Part shown: positions 4,639 to 62,651 of the stretch, piece by piece
Numbering within the stretch: position 1 is the stretch's first letter
How the letters are laid out: every line of letters begins with the position of its first letter
Assembly (NCBI GenBank): GCA_964544585.1
Contig: CAZJBV010000001.1
Location: 119,717 to 183,716, forward strand
Source of the DNA: an uncultured Gammaproteobacteria bacterium
GTDB taxonomy: Bacteria > Patescibacteriota > Microgenomatia > 2-02-FULL-39-11
Reading direction: 5' to 3'
Length of the DNA: 64,000 bases
Position numbers and translations under genes: made by a program
Notes under the pieces: generated by a model
What the model was told of the DNA's origin: nothing
Database searches by the model: none
Seen by the model: only the letters and a program-made list of their open reading frames with translations

Positions 4639-4947
4639 CTAAATCTCCACCAGTATATCATCCCCTTCAAGTTTGACGGGATAAATATTGATGGGAGATG
4701 GAGCTGGGGGTGAAAGCACCTTGCCGGTTGAAATATCAAACTGGGCTCCGTGACAGTAACATGTCAGAGTATATCCATCAAGGAAGCCGCCGGCCAAGGC
4801 GCAATGTTCGTGGGTACAAATACCATCAAAGGCAAAATAGTCGCCGTCGGTATTGGCAACGACAATAGTTTTGCCGTTTACATTATATTCGCGCATTTTG
4901 CCGGAGGGAAGGTCGGATTTTATAGCTACTTTGGTATACTCGGGCAT
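4639..4947 (-). CDS. Rieske [2Fe-2S] domain protein (suf-associated)
   Basis: Carries the two Rieske boxes, CTHEHC and CYCHGAQF. Confidence 0.75.
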   Translation of the reverse strand: MPEYTKVAIKSDLPSGKMREYNVNGKTIVVANTDGDYFAFDGICTHEHCALAGGFLDGYTLTCYCHGAQFDISTGKVLSPPAPSPINIYPVKLEGDDILVEI

Positions 4948-4950: not shown

Positions 4951-5577
4951 TTAATTTTTCAATAATTGATCTATTTTATACTCTATTTTTTTTTCTAGAT
5001 CAATTTTAATATTTACATCTGTCACTTTGTTGACGACTTCTTGAAGGAAGCCTTTTATAATCAGCTTTTCGGCAAGTTTTCTTTCAAGGCCTCGTGTGGC
5101 TAAGTAAAATATTTCTTCCTCATTTATTTTTCCGATTGTGGCGCCGTGAGTGCAACGGACGTCATTGGCGAGGATTTCCAATTTGGGCCTCGAGTCGGCC
5201 CAAGCACTTTTCCCTATTAGTAAATTTTGATTTTTTTGATAGGCGTTGCTTTTTTGGGCGTCTTTTTCGATTTTAATGAGTCCTTCGTATGCCAGTCTTG
5301 CTTCATCAAAGAGGACCGACTTAATAAGGAGATCGCTGACGCTTTCTTTTTTTATATGATCCTGGAATGTATACAGTTTAATTTGTTGTTTTCCGGAACC
5401 GATAATTGTTCCTAAAATCTGGACATTGGAATTTGAGCCATCTATGTAGATTTTAACAGCGCCTTCTTGATTGTTATTATCAGTTAAAATAATAAAAATA
5501 ATTTTATCCTCGCCGGATTTGACGTAAAGTTCTTCTTCTTTTTGCAGTCGGTCAATAATAGAAATAGAATTTTTCAT
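4951..5577 (-). CDS. sufD: SufD-like FeS assembly protein (short form)
   Basis: Its position between sufB and sufS fits sufD. It has a beta-helix-like C-terminal region with the SAWADSRPKLEI...DVRCTHGATIG motif that resembles the SufB/SufD family. The start is trimmed to MKNSISII. Confidence 0.55.
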   Translation of the reverse strand: MKNSISIIDRLQKEEELYVKSGEDKIIFIILTDNNNQEGAVKIYIDGSNSNVQILGTIIGSGKQQIKLYTFQDHIKKESVSDLLIKSVLFDEARLAYEGLIKIEKDAQKSNAYQKNQNLLIGKSAWADSRPKLEILANDVRCTHGATIGKINEEEIFYLATRGLERKLAEKLIIKGFLQEVVNKVTDVNIKIDLEKKIEYKIDQLLKN

Positions 5578-5705
5578 CAACCTACGCTGCCTTCCCCCGT
5601 ACAATGCTTTCCGTTCGCGAGGGCTACGTCCTCGCCTCACGGTGGCGCATATACGGGGCTTCGAGCCGCAAAGCGGCTCTCGCATTTCTAACCTACGCTC
5701 CCTTC
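5578..5705. repeat. GC-rich hairpin insert flanked by 17-bp direct repeats (aacctacgctgccttcc / aacctacgctcccttcc)
   Basis: The second direct repeat encodes the last codons and stop of sufB. The first copy sits immediately before the sufD ATG. The interior carries the hairpins gagccgctttgcggctc and gcgaggacgtagccctcgc. Confidence 0.55.
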
Positions 5706-8102
5706 CATTTCCAGTTGAATAAGTCTATTTAGTTCGACTGCGTATTCGAGGGGGAGTTGTTTGACGATGGGTTCTATAAATCCATTGACGACCATGGCTT
5801 CGGCGTCTGGTTTGTTGATACCGCGACTCATGAGGTAAAATAATTGGTCATCGCCAATCTTTGAGACTGTTGCTTCGTGTTCGATGCGACAATCATTGTG
5901 TTTTATATCCATTGTCGGATATGTATCTGATCTAGACTCATCATCTATCAACAAGGCGTCGCAGACGACTTTGGATTTGGCGCCAATTGCACTTTGAAAA
6001 ACCTGAAGAAGTCCTCTATATGATGTCCTTCCTCCACCGTGACTGACCGATTTGGAAGTAATCTTCGAAGAAGTATATGGAGCAAAGTGAATGGCTTTTC
6101 CGCCTGCATCCTGGTGCTGGCCGGGTCCGGCATAGGCAACTGATAGCACCTCTCCTCGAGCTCCTTTGCCCATTAAATAGACGCTGGGGTACTTCATAGT
6201 AAGCTTGGAATTGTGAACTAAAATACCATTTGCAATAAAATTCCCTTTATCAACTTCTATATCAAATGTCTCTTTTGATCCTTGGGGTACAATGCTATTT
6301 ACTCGGACAAACTGAATTGTTGAATCTTTTTTATCATCTCCAAAATATAAGAAATGATGTTTATAAACTTTTTCTTCTATACCAAGTGGTTTTCTCTCTC
6401 TCCTTGTCCAAAGCGAAATTTTCCTTGGAGAAAATTTATCGGTTATGTAACTTAGGTCTTTGACTTGTTGTAATAATTTCTTATTTACCGATGTTATAGA
6501 TATATTTCTATGATTATCACGTCTATATCCATCTGCATCGATATAACCCTCGATGAATGATGTTATTTGGGATTTTGGTAATGTGTAGATCCATTCAGGA
6601 ACTTCTTTGTCTTGCGCTTTTCCTTTGAATCCAAGCTTTACCAAAAAATCAACAAATTTTGTGGAAGCATAACGAACAATATTTCTTTTTATTTCGGGTT
6701 TAAGTCCAAAAAGCTTATTTATTGTTTCAATAACCTTTTTAAAGCTTTTATCACTTTGTGGAACAGCTATATATACTCTTGTTTTGTCCATACATCCATC
6801 ACCAATGTAAAAACCTAGAAGCCATAGCAATTCTTCGCTGCTTATTTCCGGATAGAAAAACTCCTTTTTACCACGTTTGGGGTTAAAATGTATGGGATAA
6901 TTTTTTCCTACCCATGGAAGTTTTCCTGATACTGCAATTAAATCTCCAACTTTTATTTTATCTAAAGGCATCCAATTGAAGTAAGAAATTTTTCCTTTCT
7001 TTTTTAAGACAAGAAAAGGATGATTTGCAGTTGCTTCTACTTCACGAAAATCTTCTGTTGTGATTTTGAAAACTGGAAGGGGGGGATTTTTAACTTTAGC
7101 TAACAATTTGGCTCTTGTTAAGGTAAATTCTGGAGTCATCGAGTATAAATAGTCGCCCGGTCGAATGTCTTTAATGGAAAGAACATGATCATTTGCTATT
7201 ATTTTCGCATCCTCTGTTAAACATCCTAAATTACCGTCGATCCACTCGCCAATTCCCTCTTCTTCGACTCGCATTCTTTTGGTGACGAGATTGTAAACAT
7301 TGGTCGACCAGTTTTGAATGGTGGTATATCTGACTCGTGCTCCTTTTTTGACAAAAATTTCAACAACAGCGGCGTGAAGTGAATCTGTGGTATAAACGGG
7401 AGCGGTGCATCCTTCGACATAATGAACGAAACTACCCTCGTCGGCGATTATTAATGTTCTTTCAAACTGACCCATATTGGCGGCGTTGATACGAAAATAA
7501 GCTTGTAGAGGAAGTTCCACATTGACACCTTTGGGAACGTATATAAATGATCCGCCACTCCAAGTAGCCGAATTTAAAGCGGCGAATTTATTGTCATGTG
7601 GTGGAATGATTGTGCTAAAATATTCTTTGACCAAATCCGGATACTCACGAAGTCCTGAGTCCATATCCAAGAATACTACTCCTTTTTTGCCGAGAGTTTT
7701 TTGGATGCTTTTATATACGACTTCTGACTCATATTGAGCTGAAACACCGCCAAGATATTTTTTTTCTGCTTCTGGAATGCCAATTCGGTCGTAGGTTCGG
7801 CGAATTTCAATAGGTAAATCCTTCCAACTTCTAGCTTTTTTTTCTGTGGGTTTTATATAGTAATAAATGTTGTCGAAATTGATTTTGGAAAGATCTCCGC
7901 CCCAAGCAGGGAGTGTTTTTTTATAAAAGATGTCTAGAGCATCATGGCGAAATTTTCTCATCCAATCCGGTTCATTTTTGTGGTATGAGATTTCATCTAT
8001 CACTAAATGAGAAAGTCCTTTTTTAGACTTGAATGAATAGCGTTCGGCCTCGTGAAAGCCTAGAGGGTAGGAATCGTTAATTGCTATTTGTGATGTGGGC
8101 AT
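5688..8102 (-). CDS. sufB: FeS cluster assembly protein SufB interrupted by an intein
   Basis: An 804-aa ORF. The exteins carry conserved SufB blocks (NWSTNVYNLVTKR, WIDGNLG | SKLTMKYPSVYLMG, GEVLSVAYAGPGQHQDAGGK). A 338-aa insertion begins with Cys and ends with HN, followed by Ser. Confidence 0.85.
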   Translation of the reverse strand: MPTSQIAINDSYPLGFHEAERYSFKSKKGLSHLVIDEISYHKNEPDWMRKFRHDALDIFYKKTLPAWGGDLSKINFDNIYYYIKPTEKKARSWKDLPIEIRRTYDRIGIPEAEKKYLGGVSAQYESEVVYKSIQKTLGKKGVVFLDMDSGLREYPDLVKEYFSTIIPPHDNKFAALNSATWSGGSFIYVPKGVNVELPLQAYFRINAANMGQFERTLIIADEGSFVHYVEGCTAPVYTTDSLHAAVVEIFVKKGARVRYTTIQNWSTNVYNLVTKRMRVEEEGIGEWIDGNLGCLTEDAKIIANDHVLSIKDIRPGDYLYSMTPEFTLTRAKLLAKVKNPPLPVFKITTEDFREVEATANHPFLVLKKKGKISYFNWMPLDKIKVGDLIAVSGKLPWVGKNYPIHFNPKRGKKEFFYPEISSEELLWLLGFYIGDGCMDKTRVYIAVPQSDKSFKKVIETINKLFGLKPEIKRNIVRYASTKFVDFLVKLGFKGKAQDKEVPEWIYTLPKSQITSFIEGYIDADGYRRDNHRNISITSVNKKLLQQVKDLSYITDKFSPRKISLWTRRERKPLGIEEKVYKHHFLYFGDDKKDSTIQFVRVNSIVPQGSKETFDIEVDKGNFIANGILVHNSKLTMKYPSVYLMGKGARGEVLSVAYAGPGQHQDAGGKAIHFAPYTSSKITSKSVSHGGGRTSYRGLLQVFQSAIGAKSKVVCDALLIDDESRSDTYPTMDIKHNDCRIEHEATVSKIGDDQLFYLMSRGINKPDAEAMVVNGFIEPIVKQLPLEYAVELNRLIQLEMEGSVG
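6210..7223 (-). mobile_element. SufB intein with LAGLIDADG homing endonuclease domain
   Basis: Starts at Cys (CLTEDAKII) and ends in VHN followed by the +1 Ser. Two LAGLIDADG-like blocks are present (LLWLLGFYIGDGC and FIEGYIDADGY). It is inserted at the conserved GNLG/S site of SufB. Confidence 0.8.
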
Positions 8103-12663: not shown

Positions 12664-12707
12664 ATTAGATAGGAATATACTACTTATGACGCATTAGTGC
12701 AAAAATG

Positions 12708-12779
12708 ACCTGCCTGCCGGCAGGCCCGCCTGCCGGACGGGCAGGCAGGTTGACATCGGATATTTGAAAGGACTACAAT
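12708..12779 (+). promoter_or_regulatory. GC-rich perfect hairpin abutting a sigma70-like promoter for corA
   Basis: acctgcctgcc...ggcaggcaggt forms an 11-bp perfect stem with an inner mini-hairpin. Its 3' arm runs into TTGACA, and about 18 nt later comes TACAAT. Confidence 0.5.
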
Positions 12780-14693: not shown

Positions 14694-14882
14694 TAAGAAC
14701 TCCTTTCAAAATCCCATTTCTACTGCAAGCCTCTATATTCGGCTGCAAATGGTGCAAAATTCCTAGAAGTATATTGCCATATACTCCGTCGTCATTTCTT
14801 ACCATTTTCGCTCGAATATAGAGTCTTTCGCTACGAAAGCGGGATTATGAAATGAGTTCTGTTTCTGTATTATAATACTTTT

Positions 14883-17838: not shown

Positions 17839-19026
17839 AATTTTACTATACTATATTTAGTGAAAAATATTTTAATTCTATTTGCTATTTTAATTTTTAT
17901 AGGAGCGGGAGGATTTTATTTTTGGACATCGAAGAATAAAAATACTCCCCCTTCCCCCATTCAACAAATTCCTTCTGTTTCTCGCGAAAAAATAGATAGT
18001 GAAAGTCCACCTATAGCAGTAGTAGCAGAAAATCTTGAAGTGCCATGGGCAATTGCTTTTTTGCCTGCCTCGCCGGCAGGCGGGCCAGACGGGGGAATGC
18101 TTGTAACAGAAAGACCAGGAAGAGTGAGATTTATTGATAATGATGGAAAACTAGATTCTACTCCAGTTGCGACTATAGATTCTGTCAATGCCGTTGGAGA
18201 GGGAGGACTGATGGGAATTGCGCTCCATCCAGATTTTGAGAAAAATCAATATGTATATCTTTACTATACTTATGATGGAAGTGGTAATAATACTTCAAAT
18301 CGATTGGTGCGGATGAGATTTGAAAATAATCACTTGGCAAACGAAGAAATTTTGGTAGATAGTATTCCAGGAGCAAGCAATCATAACGGAGGAAGAATAA
18401 AGTTTGGACCGGACGGATTTCTTTATATAGGAACGGGAGATGTCCAAGAGCCGTCACAATCACAGAATAGAAATACACTGGGAGGAAAAATTTTGAGAGT
18501 TACAGACACTGGTAAACCGGCGCCAGGAAATCCATTTGGAAATGAAGTTTACTCTTATGGACATAGAAATGTGCAAGGACTGGCGTGGGATAGTCGCGGC
18601 CAGATGTGGGCGACGGAACACGGACCATCAGGAATTTGGCCAAACTGTTGCCAGGATGAAATAAATCGAATTGAACAGCAAGGAAACTATGGGTGGCCTC
18701 AAAGTGTCGGAGATAAAGTTGCCGCTGGAACTGTTGGTCCTATGTTTCATTCAGGAAGAGATATTTGGGCACCGAGCGGCGCTTCCATTGTGGGAGACTC
18801 ATTCTTTTTTGCGGGTCTACGAGGAGTCACTTTGTATGAGGCAGTTATAGAAAATGGGGAGGTCACTGAGGTAAAAGAGCATTTCAAGGGACAATTTGGA
18901 AGATTGCGGGAGGTAGTTGTCGGGCCTGATAATATGCTTTATATAACAACTAGCAATAGAGATGGAAGGGGCAAACCTCAAAGCGGTGATGATAAAGTAA
19001 TAAGAGTGAATCCTAATCTTCTTTAG
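17824..19026 (+). CDS. PQQ-dependent soluble sugar (aldose) dehydrogenase, YliI/SGDH family, membrane-anchored
   Basis: Carries beta-propeller motifs (PWAIAF, GRVRFID, NHNGGRIKFGPDG, YSYGHRNVQGLAWD, YGWP) after an N-terminal TM segment. Confidence 0.75.
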   Translation: MFYSHNFTILYLVKNILILFAILIFIGAGGFYFWTSKNKNTPPSPIQQIPSVSREKIDSESPPIAVVAENLEVPWAIAFLPASPAGGPDGGMLVTERPGRVRFIDNDGKLDSTPVATIDSVNAVGEGGLMGIALHPDFEKNQYVYLYYTYDGSGNNTSNRLVRMRFENNHLANEEILVDSIPGASNHNGGRIKFGPDGFLYIGTGDVQEPSQSQNRNTLGGKILRVTDTGKPAPGNPFGNEVYSYGHRNVQGLAWDSRGQMWATEHGPSGIWPNCCQDEINRIEQQGNYGWPQSVGDKVAAGTVGPMFHSGRDIWAPSGASIVGDSFFFAGLRGVTLYEAVIENGEVTEVKEHFKGQFGRLREVVVGPDNMLYITTSNRDGRGKPQSGDDKVIRVNPNLL

Positions 19027-45048: not shown

Positions 45049-45493
45049 CCTGCGGAGGCCGGATGACTGGGGGGTACCAGACGGTACCCTCAGGAAAGTC
45101 CAGACTGCTGTAGACAGAGGAATCGCGGCAACGCGTTATCCCGATTAAATTGGGACTGGTGCTTCGACGCCGAAAGGAGTCGGGGACGATTCCGGAATTG
45201 ACCGGATGAGAGAGCCACAGAGACGAGCAGTTATCTAAACCGCAAGGCATGATAGCTGGGTGAAACGAGGGAACGTAAAATTTGCTTCGCAAATTAACGT
45301 TCCTGTTGGCAATCCCACTTGCAGCAATCTCCGATTAGATCGACAAAGACTGATGTCTTCCAGATCCGCCAGTAGGCGGACAGGGATCTAAAGATTGAGA
45401 GCATCCCGCTCAGCGGGACGACAGGATGACTTTTATCATCAGTCGAGAGAAATGGTCATTTAAACAGAATCTGGCTTATGAGCCTCTGCAGGA
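45049..45493 (+). ncRNA. rnpB: RNase P RNA (bacterial type A)
   Basis: GGAAAGTCCAGAC (P4 5' strand), GGGTGAAACG and ACAGAATCTGGCTTATGAGCC (P4 3' strand) are conserved. The P1 helix pairs cctgcggaggc with gcctctgcagg. An extended -10 (TGgTATAAT) lies at 45032-45040, and a terminator hairpin follows. Confidence 0.85.
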
Positions 45494-45502
45494 TTAAATA
45501 GT

Positions 45503-47585: not shown

Positions 47586-47661
47586 AAAAGTTTTTCTTGC
47601 TCCCTACACCGTCCGAGGAGTCCCTTCGGGCCACCTCGGAGGTGTCTTTGGGCTAATTATA

Positions 47662-48894
47662 TTAATTTAAATTTCCTTTAGCAAGATTGGGTTTGTTGAT
47701 GAGGTTTTCGAGGATTTGCCAGCGGGATTTTTTTTCGCTGTGAGGAATGTCATCTTTGAAGGCTTTGTGGGCGGCGGTTGCGGGGCGGTCTGAATACATG
47801 GAAATGTAAGCTTTATAAAAACCGACTTTTTTGGCAAGGTCAACTGTATCTAAAAATTCCTCTTCTGATTCGCCGCAGAAACCAACAATAATATCAGTAC
47901 TCAATTTTAAATTTTCAATTTTAAATTTTAAATTTTTTACAAGATCTAAATATTGTTCCCTAGTATACCAGCGGTTCATGCGTTTTAAGACAGAATTGCT
48001 TCCTGACTGGACCGGCAAATGAATTGATCTTGTCACTTTTGGGTTGTGGGCGATAACGTCTATCAATACTTCGGAAAAATCCCAGGGATTTGAAGACATA
48101 AAATCTATTTCCCCAATTCCCTCAATTTTACAGATATCTTTTAACAGATAAGGAAAAAGAGTTGGGATGCGGTATCGGTTCAGGTGTTTAACATAAATTG
48201 GTTTTATTTGGGAATTTTCAATTTTAAATTTTAAATTTTCATTCAATTTTAAATTTTTAATTTTTGAATTATCAAAATATGTGTTTTTAATATCTCTCAT
48301 TACATGAATATTTTCGGAACCTAAAATTAGATCTGCACCGTATGAATTGACGTTCATACCAAGGAGGGTAATCTTTTTGTAGCCGTGGTTGGCAAGTTCT
48401 TGACATTCTTTTATAACTTCATTGTATGGCCTACTTATTTCGCGGCCGCGAGTAAAAGGGACGACGCAAAAAGTACAAAAATTATTGCAGCCGTTTGAAA
48501 TTGGGACCCAGGCATTTAGGGCATTTGTGCGAAGGGGTGCATGGTCGAAGCCTACTTCTTCAATGGGCAAAAACTCGTCAACTTCGGGCATTCTTATTTT
48601 TAGGAGTTTTAAAAATTTGCCTGTTTTATCTCTTGCGGCCATTCCGACCATACAGCCGGTAACGACAATTTTTTCGGGCATGCCTGTAGTACGCTTTTTT
48701 TTGGTCAAATTGTTGACAAGACCATAGACGCGGTTTTCCGCCATTTCCTTGACCATGCAGGTATTGATGATGATATGATTTGCGGCATCAATATTTTTTG
48801 CTTTTTCCATGCCGCGGGCTTCAGGCATGGCGGCAATACGCTCTGAATCCGAAACATTCTGCTGGCAGCCAAAAGTTTGGATAAAGTATTTCAT
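47662..48894 (-). CDS. miaB: tRNA methylthiotransferase MiaB-like (radical SAM)
   Basis: An N-terminal MTTase domain (FIQTFGCQQN...C), the radical SAM motif CNNFCTFC, and a TRAM domain. The start is trimmed to MKYFIQTFGC. Two in-frame AATTTTA-type repeat tracts are present. Confidence 0.8.
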   Translation of the reverse strand: MKYFIQTFGCQQNVSDSERIAAMPEARGMEKAKNIDAANHIIINTCMVKEMAENRVYGLVNNLTKKKRTTGMPEKIVVTGCMVGMAARDKTGKFLKLLKIRMPEVDEFLPIEEVGFDHAPLRTNALNAWVPISNGCNNFCTFCVVPFTRGREISRPYNEVIKECQELANHGYKKITLLGMNVNSYGADLILGSENIHVMRDIKNTYFDNSKIKNLKLNENLKFKIENSQIKPIYVKHLNRYRIPTLFPYLLKDICKIEGIGEIDFMSSNPWDFSEVLIDVIAHNPKVTRSIHLPVQSGSNSVLKRMNRWYTREQYLDLVKNLKFKIENLKLSTDIIVGFCGESEEEFLDTVDLAKKVGFYKAYISMYSDRPATAAHKAFKDDIPHSEKKSRWQILENLINKPNLAKGNLN

Positions 48895-48952
48895 TTGTAG
48901 GCCAATTTTACCAAATCTTAGTAAATTCCACCACATATGCTACTATTCATTT

Positions 48953-49259: not shown

Positions 49260-50039
49260 TTAACTCGAGGCGGAGGTGTAGCGGCGCAGAGCAAATTGCC
49301 AGAAGAAGAGGCTTATTAAAATAGATATCCCTGAAACAGCAAATGCAAAAATTACTCCGAAAGGCGAAACTAGTCCTAAGAGAGCTTTTGCCGGGGTTGT
49401 CATCATGATGCCAACTGGTACTATAAATGTGAGAAATCCGCGAACTGGCTCTCGATAGACATCAATTGGGATCCGACCTGTTGAAGTCAGATCACGGTAG
49501 ATCATGACTGCGTGGTCAATTTCTGTAGTTAGTATTCCAAGAGCTAAAACGAGAATATGAAAGGCTGCGGCAATCCCAAGACCTGAAAAAATAAGGAGAA
49601 TAAAAAGAATACTGTCTATGACTGTCGGATGCTGGAGGAGGGCAACCCAAGCTGTGGCAACAATAAAAGGGATGATCATAAAAAGATCAAAGATGTCTGC
49701 ACCTCCTAAAAGCGAGCGAAAAAGAGGACTGATTGGCTTTATCAAAACCAGGTCCAGATTTCCGGAAACGACCAGCTGGCGAAAGCGGTAAACTTCGCGA
49801 AAGAAAAACTGGGAAGTAGTGTCTATGACATTGAATGTCAGGAAAAAGAGAATAGCTTGAGATTGTGTATATCCTGCAATCGTTTGTTGCTTTTGAGTAA
49901 TAATCAGTAAAAAAATCAGAAAGAAAATAAAGCGAAGGGTTTTACCTAGAAGAAAAAGAAGTCCTCCCAGTCTGGAAACGAGCATTGAGGCAAAAGAATT
50001 GAGACTCATCAAATACCAGGTCGAGATATATTTGTTCAT
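49260..50039 (-). CDS. ABC-2 family transporter permease
   Basis: A six-TM permease downstream of the ABC ATPase. Confidence 0.6.
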   Translation of the reverse strand: MNKYISTWYLMSLNSFASMLVSRLGGLLFLLGKTLRFIFFLIFLLIITQKQQTIAGYTQSQAILFFLTFNVIDTTSQFFFREVYRFRQLVVSGNLDLVLIKPISPLFRSLLGGADIFDLFMIIPFIVATAWVALLQHPTVIDSILFILLIFSGLGIAAAFHILVLALGILTTEIDHAVMIYRDLTSTGRIPIDVYREPVRGFLTFIVPVGIMMTTPAKALLGLVSPFGVIFAFAVSGISILISLFFWQFALRRYTSASS

Positions 50040-50148
50040 AGTTTTATGGCTCGACCCCGTTTTTTTGAGGTGCTCGACTGCCCTCCGCCAGCTGGCGGAT
50101 TGCGGGGCCCGCCGCTGCGCTCCTAAAAAAAGGGGTCTTCGCCATTGA
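50040..50148. repeat. GC-rich hairpin element, member C of the intergenic family
   Basis: ttttgaggtgctcg ... ccgccagctggcgg (a palindrome) ... cgctgcgctcctaaaaaaa, with outer inverted flanks gaccccgttttttt/aaaaaaaggggtc. Confidence 0.55.
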
Positions 50149-50958
50149 TTATCTTCCTTCGGCTGTGTATAATCTGAGACCTTTTTTCCATAAATATTTA
50201 TAGGCGAAATAGAAAATGAAAAGCCAGAAAATTAAAACAGTAAATCCAGTAATGATTTCATTTCCCGAAAGTCCCCCGATATAAATTTTAAGGGGAAAAT
50301 ACATCATGTAGGGAAAGGGAGTCAACAAGAGAATCTTATATAAATTTTGGGGGAGAATGTCCAAAGGAAATAGACCGCCGGCGAGAAAATCGGAAATAAC
50401 AAAAAATAAAAATCTGTGGGCCCAGGACTCCTGCGTCCAGAAACTGACGAGGCTTAATAAGAAACTCACCATAAAATACATAATGATCCCTAAAATTATT
50501 GAGATAAAAACCCAGGGAAGTATATTTACGCTTTGCGAAATAAAAATGGGCGGACTAAAGATAATGAAAACTAAGGAGACTTCTGCTACAGAAAAAATGA
50601 AATTGAGTGATTTATCGGCTATATCCCGGGCGATCAAGTATTTAAAAATATTAATCGGTTTTGTCAACCAGTTTGAAAGGTTTCCGGTATAAATCAGTTC
50701 GCCAAATTCTTGTGTTTTTGAGGAAAATATAAAAGTTGCGACAATTTGAGAAAGAAGAATATAAGTAAGCATTTGGCTTTCGGAATAACCAAAGACGTTT
50801 GACTGGGAAGAATAAATTGCCTGCCAGAGAAAGAAAAGTATTAAAAGACGCAAAAGTAAGCGGAAGCGCCATAGGGTAAAATTTAATCTATAAGCGGTTA
50901 CCTCAGAGACTGAATTTCTAAATATTTGTAAAAATAATTTCATATGAAAACTGTTCAC
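50149..50958 (-). CDS. ABC-2 family transporter permease
   Basis: A six-TM permease. Confidence 0.6.
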   Translation of the reverse strand: MNSFHMKLFLQIFRNSVSEVTAYRLNFTLWRFRLLLRLLILFFLWQAIYSSQSNVFGYSESQMLTYILLSQIVATFIFSSKTQEFGELIYTGNLSNWLTKPINIFKYLIARDIADKSLNFIFSVAEVSLVFIIFSPPIFISQSVNILPWVFISIILGIIMYFMVSFLLSLVSFWTQESWAHRFLFFVISDFLAGGLFPLDILPQNLYKILLLTPFPYMMYFPLKIYIGGLSGNEIITGFTVLIFWLFIFYFAYKYLWKKGLRLYTAEGR

Positions 50959-51025
50959 CCTAAATTTTGAGGTGCTCGTCTCTCCCGTAAACAGGAGCCC
51001 TTCGCTGCGCTCCTAAAATTTGGGT
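50959..51025. repeat. GC-rich hairpin element, member B of the intergenic family
   Basis: ccctaaattttgaggtgctcg ... cgctgcgctcctaaaatttgggttc. It shares both conserved flanks with member C and the right flank with member A. Confidence 0.55.
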
Positions 51026-52018
51026 TCACACTTTTGAATTATCTTTTTCTCCAGCAAAAACTCTTCTTATGATATCTTCTATGTCTGGTTCTGTGATGTT
51101 GAGGTCGTCGATTTGGTAAGTTTCCAGAAGTTTGGCGGCAATGTTGTTTGAATCTTTTCTAGAAACGGCAAGTTCGACATGGGGAAAGATAAATTTTTTC
51201 AGATCTCCGAATTTTTCTAATTCGGATCGCGAAACTTCTTTTTCAAAAGTGATCGATAATAATTTTTCTTGGGCGAATTTTTTGACTATATTTTCAAGGA
51301 GTCCATCGAAGATGAGCTTGCCGTGGTCGATGATGATGACTCTTTTACAAAGTTGGCGGACATCTTCCATATAATGAGAGGTTAGAAGAATGGTTGCATG
51401 GTATTCCCTGTTGTAGTCTCTAATAAAATCCCTGATTGTCTTTTGCATGACGACGTCGAGACCGATGGTTGGCTCGTCCATAAAAATGACTTCTGGACTG
51501 TGAAGGAGGGAGGCGATGAGTTCGCATTTCATCCTTTCTCCTAGTGATAATTTTCTAACCGGGACATTGATCAAATCTTTGACTTTTAAAAGTGAAGTAA
51601 GTTTTGTCAGGGTTTTATTAAACTCATTTTCTTCTATTTCGTAGATTTCTTTATTTAAGAGAAATGAGTCCATGGGTGGTAGATCCCACCAGAGCTGGTT
51701 TTTTTGACCCATAATAAGGGAGATTTTTTTTAAGAAATCTTTTTGACGATTGAATGGATTGAAATCTAGAACTGAAATCTTGCCACCGTTGGGATAAAGA
51801 AGGCCAGAGAGACATTTTAAGGTTGTGGTTTTTCCTGCGCCATTTGGGCCAATAAATCCGACTAATTCCCCTTTTTGAATTTCAAAAGAAATGCCGTCAA
51901 CTGCTTTGACGTCGTAGAATTTGCGATTGACGAGAGACTTGAGTGAACCTATGAGTCCAGGTTCTTTTTGGTAGACAGGATAATATTTTTTTAGATGGGA
52001 AACACTGATCGCAATCAT
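51026..52018 (-). CDS. ABC transporter ATP-binding protein
   Basis: Has Walker A GPNGAGKTT, the signature LSLGERMK, and Walker B IIFMDEPT. Confidence 0.85.
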   Translation of the reverse strand: MIAISVSHLKKYYPVYQKEPGLIGSLKSLVNRKFYDVKAVDGISFEIQKGELVGFIGPNGAGKTTTLKCLSGLLYPNGGKISVLDFNPFNRQKDFLKKISLIMGQKNQLWWDLPPMDSFLLNKEIYEIEENEFNKTLTKLTSLLKVKDLINVPVRKLSLGERMKCELIASLLHSPEVIFMDEPTIGLDVVMQKTIRDFIRDYNREYHATILLTSHYMEDVRQLCKRVIIIDHGKLIFDGLLENIVKKFAQEKLLSITFEKEVSRSELEKFGDLKKFIFPHVELAVSRKDSNNIAAKLLETYQIDDLNITEPDIEDIIRRVFAGEKDNSKV

Positions 52019-52098: not shown

Positions 52099-52371
52099 TT
52101 AGCGAATAGATTTTTTGAGCGCTTTTCCTGCCGTAAAACCCGGAGTTTTTCTGGCCGGAATATTTATAGGAGCGCCTGTTTGGGGATTTCTCCCTTTGCG
52201 GGCGGCTCGAGATCGGACCATAAAAGTACCAAATCCGGTGACGACAACCTTGTCGCCTTTTTTAAGCGAGTCGGTAACCGCTCCAAAGACTGCATTGACT
52301 GCATCTTTGGCTGCTTTGGCTGTGAGACTAGCCTTTTTGGCGACGTGGGCGACTAAATCTGCCTTGGTCAT
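52099..52371 (-). CDS. hup: HU family DNA-binding protein
   Basis: A 90-aa protein with the GFGTF and RNPQTG arm motif. A strong SD ggaggtg lies upstream. Confidence 0.85.
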   Translation of the reverse strand: MTKADLVAHVAKKASLTAKAAKDAVNAVFGAVTDSLKKGDKVVVTGFGTFMVRSRAARKGRNPQTGAPINIPARKTPGFTAGKALKKSIR

Positions 52372-55808: not shown

Positions 55809-57410
55809 TTACATAGATAATGCTAGAATACAATAGTTCAAAACGGGGTGTAGGTCATCGGTAGACCGCGCGCATGGGGTGCGTGAAGTAGTGGGTTCAA
55901 TTCCCGCCACCCCGACAGATAGAGAGTCCGCGAAGCGGACGGAAGGTTGGGTCTGCGCGCCCCCACTCGCGCAGACTTCTGCAAAGCCCTGATTATATTC
56001 TGGGACAAGCCGCCGATCAGTTAAAAAGAAGTTCGAGCCGACAGTTTTTGCCATGATCGACAGATCATGGGATGTATTTTTTGCGCGCGCGATTTTTGCG
56101 CACGATAGTGCGCTACCAATGAAGTTTTTGAAAGGTTCGAGCCAACTCGAACCATTTTGTTTTATTTGTTCTAATTCTTCACTTATTTTTAATTTTTCTT
56201 CGAAAAATTCGTTCTTTTTTGTCTTGTAAATTTCGGGGTCAATAATTCCTTCTAAGTAACCATCTAAGAGTTTATTAAGTTTTACATCAATATCTTTTAA
56301 TTGCTGCTCTAATTTTAGGGTATTATCGTGAATGGATACAGTCTCTAATTTCTCATCCTCATCTAGCCATTTATACCAATTACTAGCCCATTTTTCTGGT
56401 AATGCAACATCATCAATGGCTTTTCTAAATTGTTGTTCAAGCTCTGGTTCTGAAATGTAAGGTTGATTGCAGGGTTTAATTTTTTTAGTACATCTATAGT
56501 AAACATATTCAACAGTTCTATTTGTTCCTTTGTAGAATTTTTTATGAGATTCAGCGGTAATAGTTGCTCCACACTCTCCACATCTCATTAAACCCATAAA
56601 GGGGAAATTATATCTTCTTTTTTTATGTCTATCCCTAAACTTTAATTCTTGCTGGACTTTTTGGAATAACTCTTTACTTATAATAGTTTTATGAGTACCC
56701 TCGTGATATTCTCCGTTGTAATACATTATGCCTATGTAAAATCTGTCTGATAAAATCTGGCGGATTTGATTTATATGTAGGGGTTTATCAATTTTTCTTT
56801 TAAGGTCAAACTTATATAGAAAGGTCGCAATATCAGTAAAAGTTTTGTCGCCTTCGCTAAATAATTCAAAAGCCTTCTTAATTGCTTTTAGTTTTTCTCC
56901 ATCTACATCTATCCCACGGGTTTTAGGATTATTAATATACCCATAAGGAGCTTTGCCAGGATAAACACCATTGCGGATTTTTTGTCTTAACCCACGTCTT
57001 ACATTTTCAGATAAATTATCCACATAATATTTACTCTGACCAAAGGCAATATTTAACATAAATTTTCCCTGGGGAGTATTTTCAAACCAAGAGGTCGGAA
57101 ATTTTAAGTCCTTCAATTTCCCGGTATCTAAAAGGTAAATTATTTTCCCACCATCTATTGAGTTACGAGCTAATCTATCAGGATGCCACGCAATAATCCC
57201 TTGTATATGACCTTTTTCTATTTTCTTCAAAACTTCCGCAAATTTTTCTCTGCCCGGAATCTTGGCAGTTTTTTCTTCTTCAACAAATTCGGTAATTTCC
57301 AAATGCTCTCTTTTAGCGTATTCTTTTAGCTCGGCAATTTGAGCAGAGATAGATAAAATCTGTTTATCTTTTTCTTCTCTGGATTTTCTACAGTAAGCAA
57401 TGTATTTCAT
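55809..57410 (-). CDS. large serine recombinase (resolvase domain + recombinase domain + zinc ribbon)
   Basis: An N-terminal YCRKSREE...SISAQ catalytic-serine motif, a recombinase domain, and CGECG...YYRC. The last ~90 codons read through IR1-L and antisense tRNA-Pro (GIEPTTS), so the true C-terminus is uncertain. Confidence 0.8.
   Translation of the reverse strand: MKYIAYCRKSREEKDKQILSISAQIAELKEYAKREHLEITEFVEEEKTAKIPGREKFAEVLKKIEKGHIQGIIAWHPDRLARNSIDGGKIIYLLDTGKLKDLKFPTSWFENTPQGKFMLNIAFGQSKYYVDNLSENVRRGLRQKIRNGVYPGKAPYGYINNPKTRGIDVDGEKLKAIKKAFELFSEGDKTFTDIATFLYKFDLKRKIDKPLHINQIRQILSDRFYIGIMYYNGEYHEGTHKTIISKELFQKVQQELKFRDRHKKRRYNFPFMGLMRCGECGATITAESHKKFYKGTNRTVEYVYYRCTKKIKPCNQPYISEPELEQQFRKAIDDVALPEKWASNWYKWLDEDEKLETVSIHDNTLKLEQQLKDIDVKLNKLLDGYLEGIIDPEIYKTKKNEFFEEKLKISEELEQIKQNGSSWLEPFKNFIGSALSCAKIARAKNTSHDLSIMAKTVGSNFFLTDRRLVPEYNQGFAEVCASGGAQTQPSVRFADSLSVGVAGIEPTTSRTPCARSTDDLHPVLNYCILALSM
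55844..55915 (+). tRNA. tRNA-Pro (anticodon GGG)
   Basis: Cloverleaf: acceptor cggggtg/caccccg, D stem ggtc/gacc, anticodon stem cgcgc/gcgtg with loop aTGGGgt, T arm gtggg-ttcaatt-cccgc, discriminator A. Confidence 0.75.
55913..56015. repeat. IR1-L: 103-bp perfect inverted copy of 57519-57621
   Basis: Exact reverse complement of IR1-R. It starts 3 nt inside the 3' end of tRNA-Pro. It contains the internal hairpin gtctgcgcg-agtggggg-cgcgcagac. Confidence 0.9.
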
Positions 57411-57518
57411 TTTTTATTTTCCTCTTATAAGAAGAGTTCTTTTGCGAGCGAAGCGAGCAGTCCCGATGATATATCGGGACAAAATTTTTGCGTTCCTCGT
57501 TTTTTGTTCTTTTTAACC

Positions 57519-57700
57519 GGCGGCTTGTCCCAGAATATAATCAGGGCTTTGCAGAAGTCTGCGCGAGTGGGGGCGCGCAGACCCAACCTTCCGTCCGCTT
57601 CGCGGACTCTCTATCTGTCGACCTTTTTAAAAAAATCCGAACTCGCTTTAAGTCGAATCGGTAGGCGCGCTACGCGCGCCATCTTATCCGCTCGGCCTTC
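57519..57700. repeat. IR1-R (57519-57621) fused to IR2-L (57615-57700): the junction segment of two inverted-repeat-bounded modules
   Basis: The left 103 nt are the exact reverse complement of 55913-56015. The right 86 nt are the exact reverse complement of 62493-62578. Confidence 0.9.
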
Positions 57701-57850
57701 GGCCGAAGCTCTTAAACTGTCGGCCGAACCAGTCCGTAGGACTGCAAAAAACGCAAAAATTTTAAAGAACTTTTGTTATTTCTGTTTGCTTATTCCAATT
57801 TGGCATATTACATTTTGGAATATATCATATACTGTATCTTATTTTCAACT

Positions 57851-58078
57851 ATGAAAAAATCTATTTTTTCGGAGGATCATAAATATTTAGTAAGTCAACT
57901 TAAAAAAGCCAGAGAAGAAGCATCTCTTGAGCAAGAAGAGGTGGCTAAGTTACTTGGAAAAACTCAATCTTATATTTCAAAAATAGAGTCAGGTCAAAGA
58001 AGAATAGACATCGTTCAATTAAAACAATTTGCGAAGTTATACAAGAAAGAGGTTAATTTCTTTATTAAAAAGGCATGA
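57851..58078 (+). CDS. XRE-family HTH protein, probable R-M controller (C) protein
   Basis: A 75-aa Cro/C1-type HTH (QEEVAKLLGKTQSYISKIESGQR). Its stop overlaps the downstream ORF start (ATGA), as in C-R operons. Confidence 0.6.
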   Translation: MKKSIFSEDHKYLVSQLKKAREEASLEQEEVAKLLGKTQSYISKIESGQRRIDIVQLKQFAKLYKKEVNFFIKKA

Positions 58079-58920
58079 GAAGAAAAGAAATAATTAAATT
58101 TATCACCGGAATGATCGAAGAAGGTGGATTAACCTTTACTGATTATGCGACTAAACTCGAGGAGATAGTTAATAAACTATCGTTGGAAGATATAAAAATA
58201 AGCCTACTTGAATGTGGCGTAATCCCAGAGTCTTTTAATCACGATTCAACGGAAGAAAAATTATATTCAAAATATTCAGATATGTTACTTGCAAGAGCGT
58301 TCACATTCATCGGAATAGATTCCAAAGTTATTAAAGAAAGAGCAGATGCGGCAGATGTTGAGGGTAAAACTAAAGACTACACTCTTGTTGCAGATGGAAA
58401 GGTCTTTCGGTTAAGCCGAACTGCTAAGAATCAGAAGGATTTTAAGGTCGAAGCGTTAGATAAATGGAGGAACGGTAAAGATTTCGCTTGTTTGGTATCT
58501 CCTCTTTATCAATACCCTAAAAGTAAAAGTCAAATTTATAGACAAGCTATTGGTAGAAATGTTACCTTATTTTCCTATATCCACCTATATTTTATTCTCT
58601 CTCAAAATAAGTCGAACCAGTGCAACTATAAACCCTTATGGTTGGTTAGTAAGAAATTAAAAGGTGCAAAAGGAGCAGTAACTTATTGGAAGGGAATTGA
58701 TAAGACGCTTTGCAAAATCCTAAATAAAAGTCTAAAAGAGCTAGAAGCGATTAAAAAACTTGAGCTTGATTTACTAAAAGAATCTGCAAAAGAAGAAGTG
58801 GCATATATTGAAGGTAAAATTGAAACAATAAAATCATTATCACATACCGAGGCTATTGAGAGATTAATAAAAGCAGAAAAACTTGATCAGAAAATTAATC
58901 AAATAACAAGAATGGCTTGA
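58075..58920 (+). CDS. putative Type II restriction endonuclease (by context)
   Basis: A 281-aa protein with no family signature recognised. It is translationally coupled to the C-protein and convergent with the methyltransferase. There is a possible PD-(D/E)xK arrangement (GID ... DVEGK). Confidence 0.35.
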   Translation: MRRKEIIKFITGMIEEGGLTFTDYATKLEEIVNKLSLEDIKISLLECGVIPESFNHDSTEEKLYSKYSDMLLARAFTFIGIDSKVIKERADAADVEGKTKDYTLVADGKVFRLSRTAKNQKDFKVEALDKWRNGKDFACLVSPLYQYPKSKSQIYRQAIGRNVTLFSYIHLYFILSQNKSNQCNYKPLWLVSKKLKGAKGAVTYWKGIDKTLCKILNKSLKELEAIKKLELDLLKESAKEEVAYIEGKIETIKSLSHTEAIERLIKAEKLDQKINQITRMA

Positions 58921-60495
58921 TTAAAATAGAGGTTCCTGATTTACTTTACCATTTTTTGGATTAGAAACATAAGCTCCATTTAATCTTTTTTTGGCAATCT
59001 CGCAAAATTCACTGGAAATTTCAAAACCAATATATTTTCTATTAAGATTCTTTGCCGCAATAGCGGTCGAACCGGAACCAAGAAATGGATCCATAATAAC
59101 CTGACCATCTTTTGTTACAAGCCTAATTAAATATTCTAATAACTCCACTGGCTTCTGTGCTTCGTGTAGTCCTCCTTCGCCTTTGCCAAAACCAAACTGT
59201 AGAATATTTGTCGGAGATTTTCCGTTGATTAAAGACGCATCTATATTCATGGCTCCTACTTTATTTTTTAGTACATTATCTGTAATTGTAATTTCATAGG
59301 GTTTAAATAACCAGGCAATCGGTTCATATTTTGGCGCGAGATTACCAACCTTCCAACCTTCCCATTCCTTTGCTTCTTCTACCAATCCTCTTTTCTTAAT
59401 AATTTCACTTATATATTGAGCTCTGTGATGAGCATTTGGTTTTTCCCAAGCTAGGATATCTCTTAACAGAAACCCACTATCTTCAAGAGCTATAATTGCC
59501 CTGTGCAGAGTTCTTCTTGCGCCGAAAATAAATATACTTGCGCCTTCTTTTAAAGAAGGGTAGAGCTTTTTTGCCCACGAATAACACCATTCTTGGTATT
59601 CTTTTGGGATATTTCTGTCTGCGCTTGACCACCCATTAATAGGTTTTCCTCTTCTCCGAAATGCCTTTTTGCCTATCTGTGCAGGTGATTGTCCTAAAAG
59701 GGCGGAGTTTGTGTTAGCGTGTAAAACATCCCATTCATCCAGTGATATTCCATAAGGAATATCCGACAGAACTAGATCTATTGAATCCGGCTTCACCTTA
59801 TCTAGAAGTTCTATAGCATCACCACAAAGAATTTGATTTTCTTCAATATATTCGGATGGACTAACTTTATTTTCAGTTTCTGGAGGTAAATTAGTTTTGG
59901 TATTGAGATTTTTAATAATGTCAATAACAATTCCTTGCACAATTAAATTTTCTGGATCAACAAAAAATGGATCTAAACTTGAATTTGCTGGCTGAAGTCT
60001 TATTTTTCCTCTTTCCCTATATAATTTTTTCAAAGTTACTTCTGAATTGTTTATTAATGCAACTACTTTTTGTCCATTATCGGCTGTAGGTTGGCTTTTT
60101 ACTATTACTATATCTCCATGATCAATATTTTCATCAATCATACTTTGTCCAGCAACACGTAGGCCGTAGAAATCACCATTTTTCGGTATTTTTGATTTTG
60201 GTACTGCTATAAACTCTTTATCTTCAATAGCTAAAATTGGTTGTCCCGCAGCAATAGTGCCAAGCAGAGGAATCTGTACCATTTGCATCTCATCATACAC
60301 ATCAATTGCCCGAGGCTGATTTTCTTCTTTTCTTAACAAACCCAAATCTTCTAATGCCTTGACGTGATGATGGGCTGTTGAAACAGAGGATAGCCTTAAA
60401 TGCTTCTTTATTTCTTCCAAAGAAGGAGCATAACCATGTTTAGTTTTGTAGGATTTTATATATTCCAGAACTTGCTTTTGTCTTTTTGTAATCAT
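58921..60495 (-). CDS. LexA repressor (HTH + S24 peptidase) fused to a beta-class N4/N6 DNA amino-methyltransferase
   Basis: The N-terminal ~205 aa have the LexA architecture: a wHTH domain, the AAG cleavage site (TIAAGQP), catalytic Ser (AGQSM) and Lys (TLKKL). The C-terminal ~320 aa have motif IV SDIPYG preceding motif I DPFLGSGST (PF01555-like). It is a single open frame with no internal start. Confidence 0.75.
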   Translation of the reverse strand: MITKRQKQVLEYIKSYKTKHGYAPSLEEIKKHLRLSSVSTAHHHVKALEDLGLLRKEENQPRAIDVYDEMQMVQIPLLGTIAAGQPILAIEDKEFIAVPKSKIPKNGDFYGLRVAGQSMIDENIDHGDIVIVKSQPTADNGQKVVALINNSEVTLKKLYRERGKIRLQPANSSLDPFFVDPENLIVQGIVIDIIKNLNTKTNLPPETENKVSPSEYIEENQILCGDAIELLDKVKPDSIDLVLSDIPYGISLDEWDVLHANTNSALLGQSPAQIGKKAFRRRGKPINGWSSADRNIPKEYQEWCYSWAKKLYPSLKEGASIFIFGARRTLHRAIIALEDSGFLLRDILAWEKPNAHHRAQYISEIIKKRGLVEEAKEWEGWKVGNLAPKYEPIAWLFKPYEITITDNVLKNKVGAMNIDASLINGKSPTNILQFGFGKGEGGLHEAQKPVELLEYLIRLVTKDGQVIMDPFLGSGSTAIAAKNLNRKYIGFEISSEFCEIAKKRLNGAYVSNPKNGKVNQEPLF

Positions 60496-60602
60496 AGATA
60501 TTGACAGCTCAAGAATAATTCTATACAATTAGGTTAATCGAAAATGAATCGAAAGTCAAGTGGTTAAAATTTAACCTGAAGATTAAAGGGGGTGATGAAA
60601 AT

Positions 60603-60815
60603 ATGACTCATCGTAAAGGATCAAAACCAAATCATAAAGGAGAGCAGTGGACAGAATCACAAGTTGAGCGTCTTGAGAATTTGGCTAAAAGGAATACACC
60701 TACCCCTTTAATTGCAGATGCATTAGGTAGAACGGAGGGGGCAATAAGATCTAAAACATCGGAAGAGAATATTTCTCTTAAGCCAATCAATAAATCTCCC
60801 TATAGTAGAAGGTAA
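60603..60815 (+). CDS. small GcrA/Myb-like HTH protein
   Basis: W-T-E..V..L..L......P..IA..LGRT..A...K resembles the GcrA N-terminal/SANT-like DNA-binding fold. A good SD (aagggggtga) lies upstream. Confidence 0.35.
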   Translation: MTHRKGSKPNHKGEQWTESQVERLENLAKRNTPTPLIADALGRTEGAIRSKTSEENISLKPINKSPYSRR

Positions 60816-60836
60816 AATAGAATTGATAAAGCAATT

Positions 60837-61814
60837 ATGGACTTATTTTCGAAAGTCAAACCATCACTTTTTATAGCCCGTCCTTGGGATACATCCTTTG
60901 CTGAACTTTATGAACCCATTAAGAAAAACCTCGTTGGTAAATGGGAAATTAATGACGGCCCCCTTATAGTTAAAGAAGATGAGGCTCAAGCAGAAAGAGA
61001 AATGTTCATAGGTAGAAACAAGCAACTGTACGAACAGATTGTTTTAGGGATAAAGAAGTCAGATGTCTTTATTGCCGATGTAACAAATGCTAATGCAAAC
61101 GTTATGATGGAATTAGGAATTGCAATACAACTAAACAAAAATGTCATTATAGTGACAGGGCAAGATAGGAATAGACTCCCGTTTGATATACAGGGTTTTA
61201 AAGCAGAAAAATATGATAATATAAATGACCTCGGTGAAAAAATTGGAAATGGACTTTCTTTATATTTATCAATAAAAGAACAGAATTTTGATAAGCCCTT
61301 TCCAGAAAACCACATACCTATATCTGATGGGAAATTAACGGGACTTAGGGCAATAATGCCGATTCAACTTTCCAAACCTATTAAAAATTTAAAGCTGAGA
61401 ATCGAATACAAATTTGTAAATAAATCTGATGATCAGGATTGGCTAGGAATACATTTGCGAGCATCTCCCTCTATTCAACCTTCTGAATTAGTGTATGTTA
61501 GATCAAATGGTAGCTTAGAGATTGTAACGCTCCCTACCAGACCTGCACCCTCGGTAGGAGTAGATAAAGAAAATATAGATAACAGGTTAGAAGATGGATA
61601 CACTAGATTAGAACTAATTCTTGATGGCAATAAATTACTGGCCGCTACCTCAACTAAAGAGTTATATGACGATTTAATTCAAATAGAATCGTTCGGCAGT
61701 ATATTTCTTCAGGCAAATGGACATAGCCAAGATCCACAAAAACGAGAGAGTCTTGAGATTGATTTTAGAAATTTTGAAATTATTAATATAGATACGACAA
61801 GTCCTAACTCGTAA
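60837..61814 (+). CDS. nucleoside 2-deoxyribosyltransferase-like (NDT/TIR-like Rossmann) N-domain protein with unknown beta-rich C-domain
   Basis: The N-terminus (LFIARPW ... SDVFIADVTNANANVMMELGIAIQLNKNVIIV) resembles the PF05014/PF15891 fold. The C-terminal 180 aa are unassigned. Confidence 0.45.
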   Translation: MDLFSKVKPSLFIARPWDTSFAELYEPIKKNLVGKWEINDGPLIVKEDEAQAEREMFIGRNKQLYEQIVLGIKKSDVFIADVTNANANVMMELGIAIQLNKNVIIVTGQDRNRLPFDIQGFKAEKYDNINDLGEKIGNGLSLYLSIKEQNFDKPFPENHIPISDGKLTGLRAIMPIQLSKPIKNLKLRIEYKFVNKSDDQDWLGIHLRASPSIQPSELVYVRSNGSLEIVTLPTRPAPSVGVDKENIDNRLEDGYTRLELILDGNKLLAATSTKELYDDLIQIESFGSIFLQANGHSQDPQKRESLEIDFRNFEIINIDTTSPNS

Positions 61815-62492
61815 ATTATATTTTTATTTTTTAACCTTTGAAGCGGCTCCGCCGCCCCCGCCCTGTTGGGGATAATTTCCCTTAAAGGAGGGCTGCCGTC
61901 AGAAAAACTTTCAAGTAGGGAGCTAAAAGAAAATCTGGGATAGGCAGCCCGACAAACGCGAGAGCCGAGAGGAATATTTTCGGATTATAGAAAAACTCGG
62001 CTCGAGCCATCGGAATCAGTAGCGTAGCGAGCTCTCGAGAGCGAGCAAGCGGTGGGAAGCAGAAGGGGTACAAATAATAAAGGCGGGGGCGAAAAGCGGA
62101 ATACCCCCGCAACGGCAGGAGATACTAAAACAGAAAAAGGGGAGGCGAGGAGCGGCCGAAGGCTATTTTGTTCTTCGCTCCTCGCCGTGGTAGAGACTGT
62201 AAAGCGAAAATAGAAAACCCCTAATATGGGAAAGGCTCCCCCTAGGGAGCCCTCTCGCCCAAAAGCGGGGGTGCCGCTTCCTTTTAATTGGGTGGGAGGG
62301 ATGATGGGAATTTGTACCAGCGTATAGATATATGTTTTTAAAGGGAGCGTTAAGTTAGTTTTCCGCGGATGGGTGGGTTGGGCCAAGGAAAACATTTGTG
62401 TTTTTGTTACTTTACCTGTCCGCGTCAGCGGACTATAATAAATAAAAATCGCGCGCATTTCTGTCTTTGCAAAAAATACTAGAGCGAGGCCA
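61815..62492 (+). other. GC- and purine-rich non-coding segment with dense local hairpins (candidate structured RNA)
   Basis: No credible ORF. GC is far above background. There are multiple perfect hairpins (gaggcgaggagcg/cgctcctcgcc, ggctccccctagggagcc, gcgggggc...gcccccgc). Confidence 0.35.
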
Positions 62493-62578
62493 AAGGCCGA
62501 GCGGATAAGATGGCGCGCGTAGCGCGCCTACCGATTCGACTTAAAGCGAGTTCGGATTTTTTTAAAAAGGTCGACAGA
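62493..62578. repeat. IR2-R: 86-bp perfect inverted copy of 57615-57700
   Basis: Exact reverse complement. Contains the hairpin ggcgcgc-tac-gcgcgcc. Confidence 0.9.
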
Positions 62579-62651
62579 ATACGAATTCACAGAAGAAGAG
62601 TCACGGAGGCTCTGCGCGGGTGGGGGCGGGGGGGATCCTTCAAGAATTGAA

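Follow-up and report, generated by a model that had tools for sequence, protein, structure and literature searches.

We analysed a 64-kb stretch of DNA (hereafter, the window) with a G+C content of about 39%. Public records list its proteins under Candidatus Gottesmanbacteria, which places the source among the CPR/Microgenomates genomes. The window is essentially identical to a contig of assembly GCA_016186845.1 (L013) over the 7 kb that the two have in common. The genes near elements B and C described below are all carried on the minus strand, including those for HU (52099-52371), an ABC ATPase (51026-52018), the ABC-2 permeases 1 and 2 (perm1, 50149-50943, and perm2, 49260-50039), and MiaB (47662-48936). 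At the start of the window, also on the minus strand, lies korB (101-958), encoding the beta subunit of a 2-oxoacid:ferredoxin oxidoreductase; an identity with the plasmid protein KorB was rejected for this gene. According to precomputed Pfam hits, the SufB gene (window about 5560-7225; L013:87-1538) contains an intein with a LAGLIDADG domain, unlike the uninterrupted SufB genes of two relatives (contigs L029 and L031). A segment of 131 nt inside the Rieske-protein gene (window 4612-4742) is absent from the GCA_016186845.1 contig, which is nearly identical otherwise and in which Rieske and SufS form one fused gene. The difference is due either to strain variation or to a fault of the assembly.

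Three related GC-rich palindromic elements, designated A, B and C, are located in the window on the minus strand, and together with a fourth copy from a relative (C', see below) they range from 94 to 117 nt in length. Copy B (50041-50148, 108 nt) fills the spacer between perm1 and perm2 (50040-50148), and is flanked by the perm1 stop codon TAA (50149-51) and by the T-ATG of perm2 (ATG at 50037-39). Copy C (50945-51038, 94 nt) fills the spacer between the ATPase gene and perm1, where it is flanked by an out-of-frame TAA (51039-41) at the 3' end of the ATPase gene and by the T-ATG of perm1 (ATG at 50941-43). This TAA stands at the position where the ATPase of the relative that carries C' (L028) stops, but it is one base out of frame, and therefore the ATPase reading frame enters the left arm of copy C by five codons (..GEKDNSKV*) and ends at a TGA (51026-28). 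Copy A (1-100) lies between the korB stop codon (101-103) and the lon promoter. Since the window start cuts this copy, about 17 nt of its 3' arm fall beyond it, and the full element was taken from contigs with an identical korB (L014:3316-3432, equal to L013:6996-7112). An initial sequence-only reading had placed elements at these three sites; its extent for copy B stands, that for copy A (1-75) lengthens to 1-100, the copy itself being truncated by the window start, and that for copy C (50959-51025) is superseded by the spacer 50944-51038.

The relationship between the three elements was established by shared motifs, a repeat finder and arm profiles. Exact copies of TTTTGAGGTGCTCG and CGCTGCGCTCCTAAAA (a 14-mer and a 16-mer) occur exactly twice each, in B and C; in shuffled sequences, the numbers of matches with up to two mismatches were 0.41 and 0.00, respectively. 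Both motifs had been described as common to all three elements, which is true for B and C, while the diverged copy A carries TTTTTCGTGCTCG, GACTGCGCGCGTAAAA and GACTGCGCGCGTAAAATTTGGGTTC in their place. Only the cores GTGCTCG (plus strand; CGAGCAC in the sense of the genes) and CTGCGC (GCGCAG in the sense of the genes) are therefore invariant. The former is found at 50070-50076 in B, 50972-50978 in C and 10-16 in A, and the latter at 50115-50120, 51005-51010 and 45-50, respectively. A further proposed common motif, TTTGGGTTC, is present in A and C and absent from B. The repeat finder grouped the right-hand 39 nt of A, B and C into one family (D4) at 67-82% identity. With profile HMMs built for the two arms and applied to 138 kb of DNA, the true copies scored 22-29 bits (E<=4e-5), including 24.2 bits for positions 45-75 of copy A, and everything else scored no more than 7 bits.

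We describe the anatomy of the elements on the gene-sense strand, i.e. the minus strand of the window. Each copy starts just after a TAA, the end of a fixed 5' flank ATAA, and ends just before a TATG. Directly after the upstream TAA comes the arm of an outer helix, which reads AATGGC in A, B and C' and AAAAGTGT in C, and whose complement at the 3' side (GCCAT or ACAGTTTT) is followed by a few bases and then by the TATG. The 5' arm has the form ..GA(A/C/T)CCC-(AAATTTT/TTTTTTT)-A-(GGAG/CGCG)-CGCAG, and the 3' arm has the form CGAGCAC-(CTC/GA)-(AAAATTT/AAAAAAA)-N-GGG(G)T..., where N is a single bulged base between the A/T tract and GGG(G)T. Between the arms there is an apical hairpin of 23-38 nt that is unrelated from copy to copy. 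The palindromic build with variable palindromic interiors and inverted outer flanks, noted at the outset, is upheld, but the palindrome is longer than first described and spans the whole distance between the upstream stop and the downstream start. Each of the four possible combinations of the two outer and the two inner sequence types is represented in the set A, B, C and C', and the copies are therefore mosaics. Among the candidate functions considered for parts of the element, an element-borne ORF was rejected, as was a Shine-Dalgarno/anti-Shine-Dalgarno role of AGGAG/CCTC, since A and C' have CGCG/CG at this position, and as were pairs of DNA-uptake sequences, since the two cores are not related by inversion and their density is low.

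All four copies are predicted by RNAfold to form the same nested long hairpin, on both strands. The sense-strand energies are -35.6, -51.6, -28.2 and -34.6 kcal/mol for A, B, C and C', respectively, and the corresponding z-scores are -0.6, -4.3, -2.4 and -2.5, so that B is the most stable copy. Because MAFFT mis-registers the right arm and makes the RNAalifold consensus unusable, base pairs were counted on a hand alignment of the four copies. In this alignment, which was built with the hairpin in mind and is therefore biased towards structure, 87 of the 108 arm positions in helices H1-H4 form Watson-Crick pairs, and compensatory changes on both sides are seen at seven helix positions, comprising three A-T to T-A exchanges in the A/T tract, an A-T to C-G exchange in H2, a C-G to G-C exchange in H4, and two exchanges in H1. 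Wobble pairs number five on the sense strand and seven on the antisense strand of the same alignment, and neither strand is favoured. The invariant cores are not complementary to each other, and their pairing register is not constant.

Several other structured elements are present in the window. The junction between the genes for MiaB and DUF6487 (TAA...TATGAAC) is filled by a GC-rich palindrome, hairpin D (47586-47661, minus strand; -30.2 kcal/mol, z -4.1), where a relative (L018) has an 11-nt spacer. Hairpin D has no match to the arm HMMs and is unrelated in sequence to the family arms, and we regard it as a parallel case and not as a member. A divergent bacterial RNase P RNA is encoded at 45051-45494 on the plus strand (76 bits, E 3e-23); since its score is below the gathering score of 100, it is missed by a default Rfam scan. 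It spans 444 nt against 367 positions of the model and probably carries insertions. The intergenic region 14694-14882 is predicted to be very strongly structured (-58.8 kcal/mol; z about -6.9 with mononucleotide shuffles), with a fold built on 34-nt inverted arms (14727-14760 and 14794-14827), and shows no Rfam match at the gathering threshold. Two GC-rich palindromes at 12697-12762 and 18054-18107 both contain CCTGCCGGCAGGC-type motifs, are mutually 84% complementary over 31 nt, and may constitute a second small repeat family. Finally, the region 55809-62651 next to tRNA-Pro (55844-55916) is a probable integrated island. It contains a large serine recombinase gene (55809-57410) bracketed by perfect 103-nt inverted repeats (55913-56015 and 57518-57620) and a second inverted pair of 91 nt (57614-57704 and 62488-62578), and it also encodes an HTH protein, a HindIII-like endonuclease and a LexA-S24-methylase fusion.

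The fourth copy, C', was identified at the ATPase/perm1 junction of an ENA contig (L028:292-389), which represents the closest available relative by permease 1 (75% identical at the protein level). The left arm of C' is 91% identical to that of B over 35 nt, whereas the surrounding coding DNA is only 70% identical. Over the whole length, C' shares 67% identity with B and 60% with C, although it is C that holds the same junction and the site of C' is not orthologous to that of B. In the same contig, the perm1/perm2 spacer reads TAA-AAGGGCGAAACCC-ATG and corresponds to copy A at its left end (AAAGGGCGAACCC). These 13 nt are plausibly the remnant of a lost copy; they were spotted by eye and had been missed by the fuzzy, regex and nhmmer searches described below. 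A search with the ATPase for homologues yielded no new close relatives. The grouping proposed from the three window copies is thus reinforced by a further copy in another species and by the fold that all four have in common.

The orthologous junctions of other relatives are empty. In L018 (perm1 67% identical), the ATPase/perm1 spacer is 11 nt long, perm1 and perm2 overlap by ATGA, and no element is present. In L019 (perm1 53% identical), the ATPase and perm1 genes overlap by 4 nt, the perm1/perm2 spacer is 1 nt long, and an element is likewise absent. Excision of the 108 nt of copy B from our sequence gives GGAAGATAATATGAA, with a GATAA-TATG junction, which is exactly the sequence found in L019; B has thus been inserted cleanly between TAA and TATG. 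There is no target duplication at B beyond at most one ambiguous T, and no consistent direct repeat was seen in the sequences flanking A, C or C'. A model with duplication of a TA target was rejected, as it would delete the conserved perm1 stop codon. At the site of copy A, the korB/lon spacer is 174 nt long in this genome, compared to 67 nt in L029 and 65 nt in L031, both of which have a korB similar to that of the window (79% and 77% identical, respectively) and no element. In these two relatives, the korB TAA is followed by 11-15 nt and then by the -35 box of lon, and our genome has an extra 108 nt or so ahead of the same lon promoter and operator, which are conserved right after the insert. 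Taken together, these comparisons show that the copies were inserted at sites whose orthologues in related genomes lack them. A polymorphic empty site was not seen within the population, as every Logan and NCBI version carries the same copies. The lon promoter itself (TTGACA-17-TAAACT) overlaps a CIRCE-like inverted repeat, TTAGCAGTC-N9-AACTGCTAA, just outside the window start (L014:3437-3476), which is kept in the same two relatives (L029:10868-10902 and L031:10874-10908). Its conservation suggests an HrcA-type heat-shock control of lon.

In total, about 74 kb of this genome (the 64-kb window and 10 kb beyond) yielded only three copies, to which the relative adds one. Fuzzy arm searches, a regular expression for the cores, and nhmmer at maximum sensitivity revealed no other or degenerate copy in the 138 kb. 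The arm HMMs, fuzzy searches and core expression were likewise negative for the rest of the window, the 10 kb beyond it (L013/L014) and 52 kb of the relatives' loci. We also scanned larger collections with the exact pattern GTGCTCG-N15-45-CTGCGC-N3-TAAAA-N3-GGG, which is satisfied by all four copies. The scan returned six matches among GTDB representatives, all in unrelated GC-rich genomes and at chance level, three unrelated matches in JGI metagenomes, and none in IMG/VR; the source genome is evidently not included in these collections. An indication of further copies comes from assembly breaks. At one 30-mer in the left arm of B (GGCGAAGACCCCTTTTTTTAGGAGCGCAGC), three independent Logan assemblies come to an end and a fourth contig starts, which is the pattern expected where this 30-mer has more than one context in the metagenome. 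These breaks suggest, but do not prove, that the metagenome contains at least one more B-like copy. No autonomous partner or transposase with matching ends was found in the window, and neither the window nor the adjoining 10 kb contains a parent IS with the same ends.

We interpret A, B, C and C' as a lineage-restricted, non-coding, dispersed palindromic repeat family, REPIN/MITE-like in build, and estimate the probability of this reading at about 60%. The resemblance to REP/MITE-like repeats, suggested already by the sequence-only reading, is borne out by the dispersed copies with conserved termini and inverted arms, by the empty orthologous junctions of relatives, and by the greater similarity of C' to a non-orthologous copy. 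This reading also agrees with a common origin of the copies at unlinked sites, with their gain and probable loss, and with the strand-symmetric pairing. Moreover, the arms have diverged less between species than the coding DNA beside them, which implies that some trans-acting factor recognises them. Counterpoints are the small number of copies found, the lack of an autonomous partner in the window and of a polymorphic empty site in the population, and the chance-level or absent matches in the larger collections. In addition, the same orientation of the copies relative to transcription and the conservation of their arms would also arise from a selected RNA function. A further counterpoint is that template switching can yield compensatory changes in a DNA palindrome without selection.

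The following mechanism can be proposed for such a family. The copies would be spread by a trans-acting, structure-recognising enzyme, possibly an HUH/Y1 transposase that acts on single strands, of the RAYT or IS200/IS605 type, with which the missing duplication and the constant ATAA on the 5' side would agree; no such gene was found, and specifically no RAYT gene was seen among the window proteins, which were scanned in part. That the copies last in so compact a genome might be explained by their precise placement at stop/start junctions, which spares both reading frames. In the mRNA, the stop codon would lie at the 5' foot of the hairpin (or inside it, in the case of C), and the 3' arm would bury the downstream start region. 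The hairpin could then be opened by a terminating ribosome, so that translation stays coupled, and a hairpin left unopened might insulate the cistrons or protect the upstream mRNA. A stronger version, in which the family is specialised for the stop/start junctions of ultra-compact CPR genomes through duplication-free, hairpin-recognising single-strand insertion directly 3' of ATAA and through self-folding that loops the insert out of the mRNA, a terminating ribosome then opening it and keeping the next cistron coupled, appears to us quite improbable. If true, it would describe a selfish element with a structure tuned to be harmless, or regulatory, inside operons.

The effects on the host are that overlapping operon junctions are replaced by structured spacers of 82-109 nt and that the C-terminus of the ATPase is altered. 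The repeat has thus twice split overlapping genes of one transporter operon in a tightly packed CPR genome, indicating that hairpin DNA, selfish or regulatory, is able to establish itself even where translation of adjacent genes is coupled. Should the family prove numerous, it could serve as a strain-typing marker, account for breaks in MAG assembly, and provide a natural test of hairpin effects on coupling.

An alternative that we regard as unlikely is that the element, whatever its origin, is a selected intercistronic mRNA element, such as a site for RNase III or other processing, a protective 3' hairpin that raises the level of the upstream cistron, or a device for coupling (by ribosome-mediated unfolding) or insulating downstream translation. 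The orientation relative to the genes is identical in all four copies, paired changes in both strands of the helices preserve them, and the conservation of the arms between species exceeds that of coding DNA. The stop codon lies at the 5' foot (inside it in C), the start codon follows 3-10 nt past the 3' foot, and stable structures just after stop codons have been reported to control re-initiation in operons (PMC7518266). However, close relatives have the same operon with overlapping genes and without the element, which is therefore not needed for the operon, and copy A is located outside any coupled gene pair. The counts of G-U versus A-C pairs (five in sense and seven in antisense) do not favour the transcribed strand, and the invariant cores lack a constant pairing register. 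In addition, the elements have no match in Rfam, where nothing relevant was obtained at the gathering threshold or at E<=10, the best match reaching 18 bits against a threshold of 51 (E 2.3). Together with the absence of strand asymmetry in the pairing, this leaves the proposed family of small structured RNAs, taken as a curated one, unsupported.

The strand symmetry of the pairing is compatible with a site acting at the DNA level, i.e. a folded or duplex palindrome bound by a host protein such as a recombinase (as in integron attC sites), a nucleoid protein or a topoisomerase (as in BIMEs), with the cores as the recognition sequence. The build is indeed attC-like, with invariant non-complementary cores, a variable palindromic centre and no target duplication. 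Nevertheless, this explanation is very unlikely, as the core sites RYYYAAC/GTTRRRY are not visible at the ends, the flanking genes are syntenic core genes and not cassettes, and the only recombinase in the window, the large serine recombinase, belongs to a separate island 5 kb away. Also very unlikely is that the copies are lineage-acquired intrinsic terminators or attenuators, with A ending the suf-kor transcript before the lon promoter and C and C' lowering the transcription of the permeases relative to the ATPase: although A, C and C' have four or five T after the 3' arm (GCCATTTTG, CAGTTTTC and GCCGTTTTT, respectively) and an A-run before the 5' arm, and although copy A is placed where a terminator would be expected, a consensus scan for terminators is negative at A, B and C, the T-run of A, C and C' is paired with the A-run in the predicted fold, B carries AAAAC and no T-run, the T-run of the internal T7/A7 tracts precedes the GC core on its 5' side whichever strand is read, which is the reverse of a terminator, and two copies lie between the subunit genes of one transporter. 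The sequence-only suggestion of terminator-attenuators is accordingly unsupported as a general reading, but copy A, with its short T-run after the outer arm, could help to end the kor transcript.

The dispersed palindromic repeat family that we favour can be compared with several known systems. Correia elements are MITEs of Neisseria of about 100-150 nt that form hairpins, have inverted ends, lie beside or between genes, are co-transcribed with them, and can alter gene ends; they have a fixed 26-bp terminal inverted repeat and a TA target duplication. The present family is alike in changing a gene end, as the ATPase gains a five-codon tail from copy C, but the TA-duplication model fails here. 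More generally, in comparison with classical MITEs derived from DDE transposases, terminal inverted repeats are present (imperfect, about 35 nt), but a target-site duplication is absent. The MIRUs of Mycobacterium are found between the cistrons of operons in one orientation, with stop and start codons at the edges of the unit, and consist of tandem direct repeats with small ORFs, not palindromes. Our copies resemble them in operon placement, single orientation and the stop and start codons at their edges, but are palindromic. Integron attC sites have conserved ends and a variable, imperfectly palindromic centre whose length also varies, and they are recognised as folded single strands without duplication. 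In contrast, the present elements have no R''/R' core sites (RYYYAAC ... GTTRRRY) at their ends, their flanking genes are syntenic core genes, and an integrase and a cassette array are absent here. Ribosome termination structures are stable mRNA hairpins immediately after a stop codon within an operon, which form no sequence family or repeat and are reported mainly as insulators of re-initiation (PMC7518266). The post-stop hairpin inside an operon is alike, but in our case it belongs to a repeated sequence family.

The closest known kind of element is represented by REPINs and REP elements, which are mobilised by RAYT (Y1/HUH) transposases (PMC3116915, PMC3337134, PMC2817692). As far as these accounts describe them, they have in common with our copies a non-coding unit of about 100 nt with two inverted arms that forms one long hairpin, an extragenic location that is often directly 3' of genes and inside operons, and conserved arms with a variable spacer; for a single-strand mechanism, no target-site duplication is expected. 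The head of a REP carries a conserved GTAG or CGTC tag, as described in PMC3733652, whereas GTAG occurs in no copy here and CGTC only within the variable centre of C. Furthermore, the arms of our elements are not simple short REP palindromes, and their copy number (three per 74 kb) is apparently low compared to the more than 100 copies per genome given as typical of REPs in the sources consulted. The host is a CPR bacterium, and the partial scan of window proteins mentioned above gave no RAYT gene. Since the tag and a RAYT are missing and the copy number is apparently low, the family is not filed as REP. The literature searched contains no relevant report on palindromic repeats in CPR bacteria, and the main value of our observation is that, within that literature, this is the first palindromic repeat family described in a CPR genome, a modest and descriptive addition to a known class. 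The kind of element, selfish palindromic repeats, is already known, and the family itself is new.
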